NCBI RefSeq assembly: GCF_003019035.1
Contig: NZ_CP027447.1
Source: Escherichia coli
Lineage (GTDB): Bacteria > Pseudomonadota > Gammaproteobacteria > Enterobacterales > Enterobacteriaceae
DNA: 64,000 nt
Strand: one strand, 5' to 3'
The notes under the pieces are model-generated. The model saw only the letters and a list, made by a program, of their open reading frames with translations, was not told the origin of the DNA and searched no databases. Made by a program: the position numbers and the translations under genes. This document shows, in pieces, positions 22,843-28,551 of this stretch (position 1 is the first letter of the stretch; the number at the start of each line of letters is the position of its first letter).

Positions 22843-25800
22843 ATGGACAAGGAATTACCGTGGCTGGCGGATAACGCGCAACTGGAACTGAAATATAAAA
22901 AGGGTAAAACACCACTCAGCCATCGCAATTGGCCGGGTGAACCGGTGCCTGTTATCACTGAAAGCATCATCCAGACACTGGGTGATGAATTGCTACACAT
23001 TGCTGAGAAGAAAAAAAACATTGTCTGGCGTTATGATAATTTTTCACTGGAGTGGCAGTCCGCCATCACGCAGGCCATCAACTTGATCGGCGAACACAAA
23101 CCCTCAATCCCGGCCCGGACAATGGCGGCGCTAGCCTGTATCGCGCAAAATGATAGCCAACAGTTACTCGACGAAATCGTCCAACAAGAGGGACTGGAAT
23201 ATGCGACTGAAGTGGTGATTGCACGCCAGTTTATTGTACGGTGTTATGAGAGTGATCCTCTGGTAGTAACATTGCAGTATCAGAAGGAGGACTATGGCTA
23301 TGGCTATGGCTATGGCTATGGCTATGGCTATGGTTATCGCTCAGAAACCTATAACGAATTCGATCTCCGACTGCGTAAGCATCTCTCTCTGGCAGAGGAA
23401 AGCTGCTGGCAGCGTTGCGCCGACAAACTCATTGCCGCACTGCCAGGACTACCCCAAGTTCGCCGTCCTTTTATTGCACTCATCCTCCCGGAAAAACCAG
23501 AAATCGCCAATGAGTTGGTAGGCCTTGAATGCCCGTGGACTCATTTTCATTCTAAGGAGTGGTTAAAAGTTGTTGCTACTGACCACAGGGCAGTGGGAAA
23601 ACTCGAACGCTACTGGAGCCAGGATATATTTAGCGATCGCGAAGCCAGCTACATGTCGCATGAAAACCACTTCGGCTACGCGGCCTGCGCCGCCCTTTTG
23701 CGCGAACAAGGAATTGCAGCCGTTCCACGCCTCGCGATGTATGCCCATAAAGAAGATTGCGGTAGCCTGCTGGTACAAATTAACCATCCGCAGGTCATCC
23801 GCACCCTGCTGTTAGTTGCTGATAAAAACAAACCCAGCCTGCAACGTGTGGCTAAATACAGTAAAAACTTCCCCCATGCGACGCTTGCCGCACTGGCAGA
23901 GCTTCTGGCGTTAAAAGAACCGCCTGCACGCCCTGGTTATCCAATCATCGAAGACAAAAAGCTGCCTGCACAGCAAAAAGCTCGAGATGAATACTGGCGT
24001 ACGCTGTTACAAACGCTGATGGCATCGCAGCCACAACTGGCAGAAGAGGTGATGCCGTGGTTAAGTACTCAAGCCCAGGCAGTGCTGAATAGTTATTTAT
24101 CGGCACCGCCCAAAACGGTTATTGATAGCACCGATAACATCCAAATGCCTGAAATCCTCGTTTCACCACCGTGGCGTAGTAAGAAAAAAATGACAGTTCC
24201 ACGTCTTGATTTGGCACCGTTCGAATTAACGCCGCAAGTTTACTGGCAACCAGGCGAACGAGAGAGGCTTGCCGCCACTGAGTCTGCCCGTTATTTCAGC
24301 ACGGAATCTCTTGCGGAACGCATGGAACAAAAAAGTGGACGAGTTGTATTACAGGAGCTGGGTTTTGGAGATGATGTATGGCTGTTTTTGAATTATATAC
24401 TCCCCGGAAAACTGGATGCTGCACGCAATTCACTCATTGTTCAGTGGCATTACTACCCAGGGCGGGTTGAAGAGATCATGAATGGCTGGAGCTCCCCGGA
24501 AGCTCAATTAGCAGAACAGGCGCTTCGCAACGGTCACGTAGAAGTGTTAATTAACATATGGGAAAATGACAGCTACTCACGCTATCGTCGGGAAAAGAGT
24601 ATCTGGAACCTGTATTTATTGGCGCAGTTGCCGCGTGAGATGGCTTTGACTTTCTGGCTACGTATCAATGAGAAAAAGCATCTGTCTGCGGGTGAGGACT
24701 ATTATCTCAGTATCTTCGGATTGGATGCTCTACCAGGTCTGCTGTTGGCTTTTTCACATCGTCCAAAAGAAACATTTCCATTAATTTTAAATTTCGGCGC
24801 AACAGAACTGGCCCTGCCCGTTGCCCGCGTCTGGCGACGTTTCGCGGCGCAGCGTGATCTGGCTCGCCAGTGGATTTTACATTGGCCGGAACATACAGCT
24901 ACTGCACTTATCCCTCTTGTCTTCACCAAATCCAGCGATAATAGCGAAGCTGCATTACTTGCCCTGCGTTTACTTTACGAACAGGGACATGGCGAGTTAC
25001 TGCAAACCGTGGCAAACCGCTGGCAGCGTACAGATGTGTGGCCTGCCCTGGAGCAATTACTTAAACAGAGTCCAATAGAGATTTACCCGACACGCATTCC
25101 AAAAGCCCCTGATTTCTGGCAGCCGGCAATGTGGTCCAGGCCGCGCCTTATCACGAATAATCAACCTGTTACCGATGACGCTCTGGAAATTATCGGCGAA
25201 ATGCTGTGCTTTACCCAGGGCGGACGTTTTTATAGCGGACTGGAACAACTGAAAACTTTCTGCCAGCCGCAAACGCTGGCAGCTTTTGCCTGGGATCTCT
25301 TCACCGCGTGGCAACAAGCTGGTGCTACCGCAAAAGACAACTGGGCATTTCTGGCGTTAAGTCTCTTTGGCGACGAAAGCACGGCACGGGATCTGACGAC
25401 ACAGATCCTTGCCTGGCCACAAGAGGGCAAATCTGCCCGTGCTGTCAGTGGTCTGAATATACTTACTCAGATGAATAATGATATGGCACTGATACAGCTG
25501 CATCATATATCGCAACGGGCGAAATCCCGCCCCTTACGTGATAACGCGGCGGAATTTCTTCAGGTGGTCGCAGAAAATCGTGGGCTAAGCCAGGAACAGT
25601 TAGCGGACAGATTAGTCCCAACACTGGGTCTTGATGATCCGCAGGCGTTGAGTTTTGATTTTGGTCCCCGGCAGTTTACCGTTCGCTTTGATGAAAACCT
25701 TAACCCGGTTATCTTTGATCAGCAAAACGTTCGCCAGAAAAGCGTTCCCCGGTTGCGCGCCGATGACGATCAACTGAAAGCGCCCGAGGCACTGGCCCGA

Positions 25801-26505
25801 CTAAAAGGGCTAAAAAAAGATGCCACTCAGGTGAGCAAAAACCTGCTCCCACGTCTTGAAACTGCCCTGCGCACCACCCGACGCTGGTCGCTGGCAGATT
25901 TTCATTCTCTGTTTGTTAATCATCCCTTTACCCGCCTGGTTACTCAGCGATTGATATGGGCGGTTTATCCGGCAAATGAACCGCGTCGTTTACTCAACGC
26001 CTTTCGTGTGGCCGCTGAGGGGGAGTTCTGCAATGAGCAAGATGAGCCAATTGACCTGCCTGCCGATGCTCTGATTGGCATTGCCCACCCGTTAGAAATG
26101 ACAGCAGAAATGCGCAGTGAATTTGCACAGCTTTTTGCCGATTACGAAATTATGCCGCCTTTTCGCCAGTTGACGCGGCGCACAGTGCTGCTCACGCCTG
26201 ACGAGTCAGCCAGTAATAGTTTGAATCGCTGGGAAGGTAAATCTGCTACCGTTGGGCAGCTTATGGGAATGCGATACAAAGGCTGGGAGTCAGGCTATGA
26301 GAACGCATTTGTCTATGACCTGGGCGAGTACCGGCTGGTCCTTAAGTTTTCATCCGGTTTTAACCACTACAATGTTGATAGCAAAGCGCTAATGAGCTTC
26401 CGTTCTCTTCATGTATACCGTGACAATAAATCTGTCACTTTTGCCGAACTTGATGTGTTTGATTTGAGTGAAGCGTTAAGCGCACCCGACGTCATTTTCC
26501 ATTAA
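22843..26505 (+). CDS. yehI: Giant uncharacterised protein (1220 aa), tandem paralog of molR; C-terminal region of the type annotated DUF4132
   Basis: AAGGAAAGA RBS; shares blocks with molR (..QEGLEYATEVVI.., ..DLRLRKHLSLAEES.., ..GPRQFTVRFDE.., ..LFADYEIMPPFRQL..); contains in-frame Tyr-Gly repeat. Confidence 0.88.
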   Translation: MDKELPWLADNAQLELKYKKGKTPLSHRNWPGEPVPVITESIIQTLGDELLHIAEKKKNIVWRYDNFSLEWQSAITQAINLIGEHKPSIPARTMAALACIAQNDSQQLLDEIVQQEGLEYATEVVIARQFIVRCYESDPLVVTLQYQKEDYGYGYGYGYGYGYGYRSETYNEFDLRLRKHLSLAEESCWQRCADKLIAALPGLPQVRRPFIALILPEKPEIANELVGLECPWTHFHSKEWLKVVATDHRAVGKLERYWSQDIFSDREASYMSHENHFGYAACAALLREQGIAAVPRLAMYAHKEDCGSLLVQINHPQVIRTLLLVADKNKPSLQRVAKYSKNFPHATLAALAELLALKEPPARPGYPIIEDKKLPAQQKARDEYWRTLLQTLMASQPQLAEEVMPWLSTQAQAVLNSYLSAPPKTVIDSTDNIQMPEILVSPPWRSKKKMTVPRLDLAPFELTPQVYWQPGERERLAATESARYFSTESLAERMEQKSGRVVLQELGFGDDVWLFLNYILPGKLDAARNSLIVQWHYYPGRVEEIMNGWSSPEAQLAEQALRNGHVEVLINIWENDSYSRYRREKSIWNLYLLAQLPREMALTFWLRINEKKHLSAGEDYYLSIFGLDALPGLLLAFSHRPKETFPLILNFGATELALPVARVWRRFAAQRDLARQWILHWPEHTATALIPLVFTKSSDNSEAALLALRLLYEQGHGELLQTVANRWQRTDVWPALEQLLKQSPIEIYPTRIPKAPDFWQPAMWSRPRLITNNQPVTDDALEIIGEMLCFTQGGRFYSGLEQLKTFCQPQTLAAFAWDLFTAWQQAGATAKDNWAFLALSLFGDESTARDLTTQILAWPQEGKSARAVSGLNILTQMNNDMALIQLHHISQRAKSRPLRDNAAEFLQVVAENRGLSQEQLADRLVPTLGLDDPQALSFDFGPRQFTVRFDENLNPVIFDQQNVRQKSVPRLRADDDQLKAPEALARLKGLKKDATQVSKNLLPRLETALRTTRRWSLADFHSLFVNHPFTRLVTQRLIWAVYPANEPRRLLNAFRVAAEGEFCNEQDEPIDLPADALIGIAHPLEMTAEMRSEFAQLFADYEIMPPFRQLTRRTVLLTPDESASNSLNRWEGKSATVGQLMGMRYKGWESGYENAFVYDLGEYRLVLKFSSGFNHYNVDSKALMSFRSLHVYRDNKSVTFAELDVFDLSEALSAPDVIFH
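23293..23334 (+). repeat. In-frame hexanucleotide microsatellite (TATGGC)6 + TATGGT encoding a (Tyr-Gly)n tract inside yehI
   Basis: Six perfect TATGGC units 23293-23328 plus one TATGGT, in the yehI reading frame; absent from the paralogous position in molR. Confidence 0.9.
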
Positions 26506-26510
26506 AACAC

Positions 26511-26542
26511 AGCGGGCAGTGATGCGACTGCCCGTTATTAAC
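26511..26542 (+). terminator. Hairpin downstream of yehI (possible terminator/attenuator)
   Basis: CGGGCAGT-gatgcg-ACTGCCCG stem-loop (26513-26534) followed by TTATTAAC. Confidence 0.5.
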
Positions 26543-26565
26543 ACGACCTGCCACCGGGGGAAGCG

Positions 26566-26886
26566 ATGATCGTGCAAAAAGAGCTGGTCACTATTTACGA
26601 TTATGAGGCCCCTGTACCTGAAGAGCCGTTTTCCTTCAGACTTGAGATCCATAAATGCTCTGAATTATTTACAGGTTCCATCTACCGGCTGGAGCGATTC
26701 CGGCTACATCCAACATTTCATCAACGTGATCGAGAGGATATCGACCCGCTAATAAATGATGCGTTGATTTATATAAGAGATGAGTTTATTGATGAGCGAA
26801 AATTACGGGGCGAATCACCAGAAACGGTAATAGCCATTTTTAATCGTGAACTACAGAATATATTCAACCAAGAAATAGAAAAATAG
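26566..26886 (+). CDS. yehK: Small acidic protein of unknown function, 106 aa
   Basis: ORF with GGGGGAAGCG upstream; no recognisable motif; recalled as YehK. Confidence 0.8.
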   Translation: MIVQKELVTIYDYEAPVPEEPFSFRLEIHKCSELFTGSIYRLERFRLHPTFHQRDREDIDPLINDALIYIRDEFIDERKLRGESPETVIAIFNRELQNIFNQEIEK

Positions 26887-26894
26887 CTTTATTA

Positions 26895-26920
26895 AAGGGG
26901 GGAAACGGTATTCCCCCTTA
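26895..26920. terminator. Bidirectional GC hairpin between convergent yehK and the small toxin-like gene
   Basis: GGGGGG-aaacggtatt-CCCCC stem-loop flanked by A/T; placed between the 3' ends of yehK (+) and the 29-codon ORF (-). Confidence 0.5.
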
Positions 26921-26940
26921 GATGCGTTTCAATTTGCCCG

Positions 26941-27030
26941 TTACTTCAACAAATCAATCAGCCGTAACAGAGCCACTAATAACTCCAGTACGGCAATGAG
27001 CACGGTTAACTTTTGTGTCAGCGTGTCCAT
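26941..27030 (-). CDS. zorO: 29-aa hydrophobic peptide, type I toxin-like (ZorO-like)
   Basis: Minus-strand ATG (27028-27030) with AAGGAGAG SD; translates to MDTLTQKLTVLIAVLELLVALLRLIDLLK, a single predicted TM helix; matches my recollection of ZorO from O157:H7; long structured 5' leader with an antisense target site. Confidence 0.65.
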   Translation of the reverse strand: MDTLTQKLTVLIAVLELLVALLRLIDLLK

Positions 27031-27211
27031 CCGCTCTCCTTATTAAGGAGCGCAACACCAGCATCTTACCCTTACACTGCCTGTCGATACTGGTTTACGT
27101 ATGTTGGACCACGATGTTGCACTCCGGATCAGGGCACTACCTGCGGCACCACCCGTCCGGTAGCCAGGACTTGAAATGGGTTCGATCCGGCGCAACGTCC
27201 CAACAGTCAGG

Positions 27212-27262
27212 ATTATAAATCTCATTATCTTAATTGCAACGGGGTCCACCGATGGTTATAAT
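27212..27262. promoter_or_regulatory. Back-to-back sigma70-like promoters sharing one palindromic -35 hexamer (TTGCAA): minus-strand promoter for the toxin mRNA and plus-strand promoter for the antisense sRNA
   Basis: Plus: TTGCAA (27234-27239) -17 nt- TATAAT (27257-27262); minus: TTGCAA -16 nt- TATAAT (complement of 27212-27217); the minus promoter predicts a ~170-nt 5' UTR for the toxin. Confidence 0.55.
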
Positions 27263-27268
27263 TCGTTC

Positions 27269-27352
27269 GTTGGAACACGATGTTGCACAGGCCGTGGTGT
27301 TAGGCCTGAAAGTAGTAAATAAAAGAACCTGCCTCACCAGCAGGTTTTTTTA
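27269..27352 (+). ncRNA. orzO: Candidate antitoxin sRNA (OrzO-like), ~80 nt, divergent from the toxin gene
   Basis: Starts ~7 nt after TATAAT; 5' seed GTTGGAACACGATGTTGCAC (27269-27288) is 19/20 identical to 27103-27122, so it is complementary to the toxin mRNA leader; internal hairpin CAGGCC..GGCCTG; ends in intrinsic terminator. Confidence 0.55.
27326..27352 (+). terminator. Rho-independent terminator of the candidate sRNA
   Basis: AACCTGC-ctcacca-GCAGGTT stem-loop followed by TTTTTTT. Confidence 0.8.
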
Positions 27353-27462
27353 TTTACTATGATCTGCTTTCCAGATATTTTCCGCTCAAACAACTAATGC
27401 GCCAAACATTTATTGCGCGTAAAATATCGTTTATTTCATTAATACATTTCAGGGATGAATAT

Positions 27463-28551
27463 ATGTCACCGCAGAATAATCATCTGCAGCGTCCGCCTGC
27501 CGCTGTGTTATACGCCGATGAACTGGCAAAATTAAAACAAAATGATCACGCACCTTGCCCGCCCGGTTGGCAGTTAAGTTTGCCTGCGGCCCGTGTTTTT
27601 ATCCTTGGCGACGAAGCACAAAATATTAGCCGTAAAGTCGTGATTAGCCCCTCCGCTGTCGAACGCATGTTAGTCACTCTCGCTACCGGGCGCGGTTTGA
27701 TGTTGGTGGGGGAACCTGGCACCGCAAAATCGCTCCTGTCTGAATTACTGGCAACCGCTATTAGCGGCGATGCCGGGTTAACCATCCAGGGCGGCGCATC
27801 TACTACTGAAGATCAAATCAAGTACGGCTGGAACTACGCCCTGCTTATCAACCATGGTCCGTCAACGGAAGCACTGGTCCCTGCCCCGCTTTACCAGGGA
27901 ATGCGCGACGGCAAAATCGTCCGTTTTGAAGAGATAACGCGTACACCGCTGGAAGTACAAGACTGTCTGTTAGGTATGCTTTCTGACAGGGTGATGACGG
28001 TGCCGGAGCTCACCGCTGAAGCCAGTCAGCTCTATGCGCGGGAAGGCTTTAATATTATTGCCACTGCCAATACCCGCGATCGCGGCGTCAATGAAATGAG
28101 TGCTGCGCTAAAGCGTCGTTTCGATTTTGAAACTGTCTTTCCGATTATGGATTTCGCTCAGGAGCTGGAGCTTGTCGCCAGTGCTTCGGCGCGTTTGCTG
28201 GCCCATAGCGGTATTCCGCATAAAGTGCCTGACGCGGTACTGGAGTTACTGGTCCGCACCTTCCGCGATCTGCGTGCCAACGGCGAAAAGAAAACGTCAA
28301 TGGATACACTAACAGCGATTATGTCCACCGCTGAAGCCGTGAACGTGGCCCACGCTGTGGGCGTCCGCGCCTGGTTTTTAGCGAATCGCGCAGGTGAGCC
28401 AGCCGATCTGGTGGACTGTATTGCCGGAACCATCGTCAAAGATAACGAAGAAGATCGCGCGCGTCTGCGCCGTTACTTCGAACAGCGAGTCGCCACACAT
28501 AATGAAGCTCACTGGCAGGCTTATTATCAAGCTCGCCACCGCCTGCCGTGA
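27463..28551 (+). CDS. yehL: MoxR-like AAA+ ATPase (CbbQ/NirQ/NorQ-type), 362 aa
   Basis: Walker A LMLVGEPGTAKS, Walker B-like KIVRFEEITR; start ATG 27463 (MSPQNNHLQRPP..) chosen over ORF-track 27397. Confidence 0.9.
   Translation: MSPQNNHLQRPPAAVLYADELAKLKQNDHAPCPPGWQLSLPAARVFILGDEAQNISRKVVISPSAVERMLVTLATGRGLMLVGEPGTAKSLLSELLATAISGDAGLTIQGGASTTEDQIKYGWNYALLINHGPSTEALVPAPLYQGMRDGKIVRFEEITRTPLEVQDCLLGMLSDRVMTVPELTAEASQLYAREGFNIIATANTRDRGVNEMSAALKRRFDFETVFPIMDFAQELELVASASARLLAHSGIPHKVPDAVLELLVRTFRDLRANGEKKTSMDTLTAIMSTAEAVNVAHAVGVRAWFLANRAGEPADLVDCIAGTIVKDNEEDRARLRRYFEQRVATHNEAHWQAYYQARHRLP

Follow-up and report, generated by a model that had tools for sequence, protein, structure and literature searches.

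The window analysed here is a 64,000-nt stretch of Escherichia coli DNA (contig NZ_CP027447.1 of assembly GCF_003019035.1). [quoted passage not shown] The flanking open reading frames match yehI, yehK and yehL, and the yehI/yehK-yehL intergenic site is as published (PMC2887945), the yehK-yehL site being the one at which zor-orz was discovered (Fozo 2010, PMC2887945). The defining features of the zor-orz family that can be read from sequence are all found at this site, namely an sRNA of Rfam family RF02083, a 29-aa toxin with its AAGGAG, the genomic location itself, the pairing between the two RNAs and the promoter hexamers. Of 5,426 complete E. coli genomes, 5,232 have the 541-bp region in part or in whole, and at least 80% of it is covered in 3,393. 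The literature on zor-orz that we have used is PMC2887945 (Fozo 2010), PMC3919570 (Wen 2014), PMC5397157 (Wen 2017) and PMC11264685 (Shore 2024); for zorO-orzO of strain EDL933 it was reported that overproduced ZorO is toxic and that the cognate Orz represses it (PMC3919570). In the neighboring yehI gene (22843-26505, plus strand), an in-frame (CTATGG) x 8.3 repeat at 23292-23341 encodes seven YG units, and YehI has 1220 aa in the window and 1210 aa in K-12, which has two YG units. YehI is a protein of unknown function, and the hexanucleotide microsatellite in its gene is both coding and variable.

The toxin ORF (MDTLTQKLTVLIAVLELLVALLRLIDLLK, 29 aa) lies on the minus strand at 26941-27030, and its product is identical to that translated from copy 1 of O157, which is zorO as assigned by primers EF511 and EF524. 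Its ribosome-binding site, AAGGAG, is at 27036-27041 (minus strand). For zorO a 5' UTR of 174 nt with the ribosome-binding site AAGGAG at +164 to +169 has been published (PMC5397157). The zor ATG begins at 27030, and the UTR length and the position of the ribosome-binding site both give G27204 of the minus strand as +1, with the 174-nt 5' UTR at 27031-27204. This +1 follows the final base of the minus-strand -10 by 8 nt, and O157 zorO has an equal spacing between -10 and ATG, so the start site can be transferred without an indel. A probable terminator hairpin, having a 7-bp G/C-rich stem and a weak U tract, is placed tentatively by its fold at 26898-26917 (minus strand), 10 nt past the stop codon of the convergent yehK; the consensus terminator scan made no call at this hairpin.

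On the plus strand, the Orz sRNA extends over 84 nt (27269-27352), starts with GUUGGAACACGAUGUUGCAC and has a pairing box of the OrzP type, as indicated by Rfam, published primers and Term-seq. The match to Rfam RF02083 (OrzO-P) covers 27276-27351 and model positions 1-76, at 98.9 bits (E = 8e-17; gathering score 60). In the cloning primers EF537 (orzO) and EF541 (orzP), the AatII site at the vector +1 is joined to GTTGG (PMC3919570 Table S2), which gives G27269, 7 nt beyond the plus-strand -10, as the +1 of orz; the pairing region of OrzO is its first 18 nt (PMC3919570). A Term-seq 3' end of MG1655 maps to 2204485 (+), the base immediately after the terminator's U7 run (PMC7815308 supplement), and when moved from K-12 by alignment it places the 3' end of Orz at 27352 in the window. 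Northern blots showed an Orz of about 85 nt, which in EDL933 is plentiful in exponential phase and drops in stationary phase, and primer extension in EDL933 gave the start sites for the two toxin mRNAs and the two sRNAs (PMC2887945). Positions 27204 and 27269 are these EDL933 start sites carried to the window strain by alignment. The assignment of an sRNA to the plus strand and a toxin mRNA to the minus strand, which had been proposed by an earlier sequence-only reading of this DNA, is borne out by the RF02083 match and the 29-aa ZorO ORF.

The intrinsic terminator of Orz was located by repeat search, terminator scan and fold as a 20/20-nt inverted repeat at 27313-27359, with a core stem at 27326-27346. 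Having an A-tract before it and a T-tract after it, and scoring on both strands, it looks bidirectional from its sequence. Rfam matches to OrzO-P on the minus strand (27.9 bits), Thr_leader and Trp_leader were rejected; all are far under their gathering scores and are spurious because the terminator is symmetric.

The locus resembles zorO-orzO and zorP-orzP of O157:H7 EDL933 in its site, toxin, sRNA family and 174-nt UTR geometry, and the promoter core ATTATA-16-TTGCAA-17-TATAAT is present in both EDL933-type copies. O157:H7, however, has two tandem zor-orz copies, whereas there is one in the window. In nucleotide sequence the window is closest (96.3%) to the yehL-proximal zorP/orzP copy of O157, with which it has the pairing box GGAACACGATGTTGCACA in common, yet its toxin carries T3 like ZorO, in contrast to S3 in ZorP. 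As read from sequence, the window allele (26941-27352) is a mosaic of zorP/orzP-like sequence and pairing box with a ZorO-type protein. Within the orz spacer the window and O157 copy 2 differ at 3 positions (CACCGATGGT versus CAGCCGTGGT). Other pairing boxes, GTTGAGATGCCATGTTGCAC and GTTGGGGCGCCATGTTGCAT, occur with the same invariant promoter core in loci L081 (916-1046) and L082 (927-1057), and are probably those of the published zorQ/orzQ type. K-12 MG1655 (L083 5346-5396) and BL21 (L002 842-892) have an orz-only remnant in which the zor promoter is complete and about 30 nt of the zor leader are left, and this zor promoter now points antisense to the 3' end of yehK. In BL21 the stem of the Orz terminator has a G-to-T change (cagcagttttt).

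The 51-bp core from 27212 to 27262 reads ATTATA-AATCTCATTATCTTAA-TTGCAA-CGGGGTCCACCGATGGT-TATAAT on the plus strand. Sequence reading and promoter scan assign the palindromic TTGCAA at 27234-27239 as a -35 hexamer common to P-orz on the plus strand and P-zor on the minus strand. In the scan, the -10 of P-orz is TATAAT at 27257-27262 (plus strand), separated from the -35 by 17 nt, and the -10 of P-zor is TATAAT on the minus strand at 27212-27217 (ATTATA on the plus strand), with a spacer of 16 nt. The sequence-only reading had described this hexamer with spacers of 17 nt (plus) and 16 nt (minus), and was right as to both the coordinates and the symmetry. Each promoter scores 10/12 in the consensus scan, and the two are the sole promoter-like sites across 26000-28500. 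The palindrome is confined to 6 bp and its flanks are asymmetric. Against TTGACA, the hexamer has 4/6 matches on either strand; the registers one base off, GTTGCA and ATTGCA, have 3/6. The start sites are 65 bp apart and the -10 boxes 45 bp apart, and the -10 of either promoter is at about -52 to -58 of the opposite one. P-orz has the optimal 17-nt spacer and an upstream A+T content of 79% versus 50% for P-zor, which has an A+T-rich spacer; sequence by itself does not tell which promoter is the stronger.

Could such an arrangement be a chance juxtaposition of promoter-like hexamers having no function? The general frequency of promoter-like sequence in A+T-rich intergenic DNA is all that speaks for it. 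The pattern ATTATA-N15-18-TTGCAA-N15-18-TATAAT has one match in the 64-kb window and none in 100 dinucleotide-preserving shuffles. When the whole window was scanned for opposite-strand pairs of promoter-like sites using one -35 hexamer, by the same 9-of-12 criterion, the zor/orz pair was the only one found; block shuffles gave 0.005 such pairs per window, with a pair seen in 1 of 200 shuffles. The arrangement also fits the published start sites and the detected RNAs and is conserved across species, and transcript mapping refutes the chance explanation, to which we attach a negligible probability. Start sites inconsistent with the -10 boxes had been named in the sequence-only reading as what would speak against it, and the published ends, at 27204 and 27269, agree with both boxes. 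As a separate observation, TTGCAA is scarce in the window (18 occurrences against 37.9 expected; 99 of 100 dinucleotide-preserving shuffles have at least 18).

To assess conservation, orz-like loci were picked by the Orz terminator alone, blind to the promoter. The 11 loci comprise, among E. coli, the window, the two O157 copies, BL21, IHE3034 and the two copies of GPEC1165, and in addition two from Escherichia whittamii and one each from Escherichia sp. E1V33 and Escherichia sp. MOD1-EC7003. The core ATTATA-16-TTGCAA-17-TATAAT is exact in all 11 of these Escherichia loci. Among the distinct sequences the spacer lengths are constant, and 8/16 and 12/17 spacer positions (20/33 together) are variable as against 0/18 hexamer positions, a difference for which Fisher's exact test gives p ~1e-5, a rough value that overstates independence because the sampled loci are closely related. 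The sequences for this test were retrieved by a regular expression into which the architecture is written, which makes the hexamer invariance circular within this set, and the validity of the comparison rests on the terminator-only selection. A cross-species search with the terminator pattern AAAAGAACCTGC-N7-GCAGGTT proved too generic, returning 77 stretches of which 74 were unrelated terminators of other phyla and 3 were useful Escherichia loci; no locus from E. fergusonii or E. albertii came out of this search. In a much larger published set of 2,439 loci, the -35 TTGCAA is kept in 99.4% of cases for zor and orz alike, and the -10 TATAAT in 100% for zor and 99.8% for orz (PMC11264685 Table 3).

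The conservation bears on the possibility that only one promoter uses TTGCAA while the other leans on its perfect -10, the -35 match being incidental. TTGCAA matches only 4/6 of TTGACA on each strand, a consensus -10 tolerates a weak -35, and there is a published tisAB promoter without an assigned -35, all of which could be accommodated by such an explanation. It is difficult to reconcile with the hexamer and the spacer lengths of 16 and 17 being invariant while the adjoining spacer bases vary, or with the alternative registers reaching 3/6 only. A hexamer that offers TTG on both strands must be TTGCAA. The off-consensus CAA of orz, in place of ACA, is the TTG of zor, so its retention is expected if both strands are read, and the persistence of CAA, instead of the stronger ACA, in 99.4% of the 2,439 loci would fit a constraint exerted by the minus-strand promoter. 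We regard use by a single promoter as highly unlikely. Hexamer conservation alone would not prove use of the element by both promoters. Taken with the start sites and the scan, we consider it very probable that the core is a divergent sigma-70 promoter region of the single-copy zor-orz in which TTGCAA is the -35 of both promoters.

An origin of the core in an ancient inverted duplication centred on TTGCAA was considered and rejected. In global alignment the two 70-nt arms are only marginally above shuffles (84 of 2,000 reached the score), and the transcribed 30 nt are not above them (874 of 5,000). Both transcripts begin with GUUGG (27204-27183, minus strand; 27269-27288, plus strand), and this common start is better explained by the pairing of both 5' ends with the same UTR site. 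The inverted repeat I2 (27105-27116 versus 27237-27248; 83% complementary over 12 nt) was treated as chance because the DNA of one arm is transcribed into neither RNA. The direct repeat D1 (27098-27122 versus 27264-27288), 88% identical over 25 nt, is the source of the complementarity between Orz and zor. Its orz-side copy takes in 5 nt of untranscribed DNA ahead of the Orz +1. The sequence hints that orz may have arisen by duplication of the target segment in the zor leader.

Control of the toxin is mainly post-transcriptional: the 5' end of Orz pairs with the zor UTR and RNase III cuts the duplex (PMC3919570, PMC5397157), and the full-length zor UTR does not allow translation before 28 nt have been removed from its 5' end, upon which the EAP at +73 to +102 is exposed (PMC5397157). 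By RNA duplex prediction, nt 1-20 of Orz form 19 pairs, with one internal A/G mismatch, with +84 to +103 of the zor UTR (27102-27121, minus strand), a target site within the published EAP. The threshold used in PMC11264685 for such a divergent sRNA is 15 uninterrupted pairs, or 17 if there is a single mismatch, and this duplex passes it. In the minimum free energy fold of the UTR, nt 1-22 of zor pair with nt 74-102, the site that Orz targets. The predicted duplex and the predicted fold of the window sequences fit the published post-transcriptional model. Pairing of the first 18-20 nt of Orz with +84 to +103 of the UTR would lead to RNase III cleavage and would block the standby or EAP site, and the zor 5' end would mask the Orz target in cis until processing. 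The 5' end of the zor mRNA may then be regarded as a cis mimic of the antitoxin, which fits the published processing model; in the accessible parts of the published text on processing, the sequence mimicry is not spelled out.

At the level of initiation, P-orz is expected to fire rightward from G27269 to give the 84-nt Orz antitoxin, and P-zor leftward from G27204 to give the toxin mRNA with its 174-nt 5' UTR. Sigma region 4 would need the same 6 bp at either promoter, so that one holoenzyme could be accommodated at a time. From the RNA polymerase footprint and the geometry of sigma region 4, mutual exclusion of polymerases at zor/orz is nearly certain. Judged by its sequence, the palindrome would be the minimal solution for placing two back-to-back promoters within 51 bp.

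It is instructive to compare zor/orz with the bidirectional promoters described by Warman and Grainger, in which a pseudo-symmetric -10 is shared and the divergent start sites are close (PMC12825309). The two have in common that one short symmetric element is read both ways and that one orientation excludes the other, which for zor/orz follows from the geometry. They differ in that the Warman and Grainger class shares the -10 and has separate -35s, whereas zor/orz shares the -35 and has separate -10s; with two -10 boxes (27212-27217 and 27257-27262) and starts 65 bp apart, zor/orz lacks the shared -10 that defines the class. Separate divergent promoters are explicitly excluded from the bidirectional class (PMC12825309). 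The zor/orz arrangement falls between the two. The consensus scan and the EDL933-mapped starts, as transferred, show a back-to-back pair of divergent sigma-70 promoters, and zor/orz is best described as such a pair at the closest possible spacing.

Close divergent sigma-70 promoters at which a polymerase at one promoter affects the other include PR/PRM of lambda and 434, aroP P1/P3 and crp, and these are governed by repressors or activators that bind between or over the promoters. In the 51-bp core of zor/orz, by contrast with the type represented by lambda and 434 PR/PRM, no regulator site is known or evident. A literature search on mutual exclusion at 434 PR/PRM returned nothing relevant. 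Among toxin-antitoxin systems, shoB-ohsC and tisB-istR-1 are similar to zor-orz in having an sRNA that is divergent from the toxin gene, an sRNA 5' end that pairs with a short segment of a long toxin 5' UTR and a toxin mRNA that requires 5' processing. The published -35s of K-12 shoB (GTGACC, L003 614-609, minus strand) and ohsC (TTGTAA, L003 684-689), on the other hand, are about 70 bp apart, and among the three systems the shared -35 is specific to zor-orz. At K-12 shoB-ohsC (L003 663-690) there is also an unannotated minus-strand promoter-like sequence, TTTACA-16-TAGCAT (9/12), which overlaps the published ohsC -35 by 5 bp and faintly recalls what is seen at zor/orz.

The main question then is whether exclusion has regulatory consequences. 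Under regulatory competition, with both promoters heavily occupied, an orz-bound polymerase would block zor and the reverse, the transcripts would be anticorrelated in single cells and a lowering of orz initiation would de-repress zor. The steric overlap is complete in that each polymerase would cover the -35 and the -10 of the other promoter; both promoters score 10/12 with perfect -10 boxes, on paper above typical promoters, and the Orz level is higher in exponential than in stationary phase (PMC2887945). For promoters sharing a -10, no measurable competition was found at basal activity and it became clear once one direction was strengthened or activated (PMC12825309); steric effects thus arise when one direction is highly active, and expression noise is then altered. 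With its perfect -10 boxes, competition is more plausible at zor/orz than at weak -10-sharing promoters. By analogy, however, the basal activity of all five tested -10-sharing bidirectional promoters was too low for competition (PMC12825309). ZorO produced from its native promoter elements was detected, though barely, even on a multicopy plasmid, and the known control is post-transcriptional. Orz is expressed also in MG1655, from an identical promoter, and K-12 makes Orz normally with the zor promoter kept, an observation made with that promoter present only. Regulatory competition is in our estimation possible, though doubtful.

Positive coupling is the converse explanation. Transcription drives supercoiling, as described by the twin-domain model, and negative supercoiling left behind each polymerase might help to open the opposite promoter, resulting in co-activation. 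The back-to-back geometry with start sites 65 bp apart makes this a natural expectation of the model, and PMC5175336, judging by its title and abstract, deals with how back-to-back promoters are coupled topologically. On the other hand, promoters with a consensus -10 usually depend little on supercoiling for opening, and the short transcripts (84 nt and about 315 nt) would generate little torsional stress, which render such coupling quite unlikely.

Returning to the shared -35 itself, we judge that its main role is to subject zor and orz to a common constitutive sigma-70 signal within a small unit inherited as one. Steric exclusion at zor/orz is probably of little consequence while neither promoter is heavily occupied, and the coupling of toxin and antitoxin transcription by competing polymerases, as put forward in the sequence-only reading, would be an extrapolation from the geometry. 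A distinct class of -35-sharing bidirectional promoters, with two near-consensus promoters in mutually exclusive initiation and anticorrelated bursts of toxin and antitoxin, is a rather unlikely extension of these observations.

The shared-promoter feature is real and functional, and the genes, start sites and hexamers of the system are already known from publications, the hexamers from a survey of more than 2,000 genomes. The arrangement had been offered as new in the sequence-only reading, but it is already contained in the legend of Fig. 1A of PMC3919570 and in Table 3 of PMC11264685. According to that legend, predicted -35 and -10 elements are marked by boxes in the figure of Wen 2014 (PMC3919570), and Shore 2024 lists TTGCAA as the -35 for both zor and orz, with identical conservation figures (PMC11264685). 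The accessible parts of the published zor-orz text contain no statement or test that both -35 boxes are the same 6 bp. A literature search for explicit "shared -35" wording returned noise only, and a dissection of the zor/orz promoters was not found in the literature.

In summary, a single TTGCAA hexamer very probably serves as the -35 of both the toxin and the antitoxin promoter at zor-orz. If -35-sharing promoters do form a class with mutually exclusive initiation, the toxin-to-antitoxin ratio would be set partly by the choice of orientation made by the polymerase, and the rules of polymerase competition that apply to bidirectional promoters would extend to a second geometry. Should the sharing measurably link the initiation of the toxin and antitoxin transcripts, a system regarded as post-transcriptionally controlled would gain a further level of control, at transcription.
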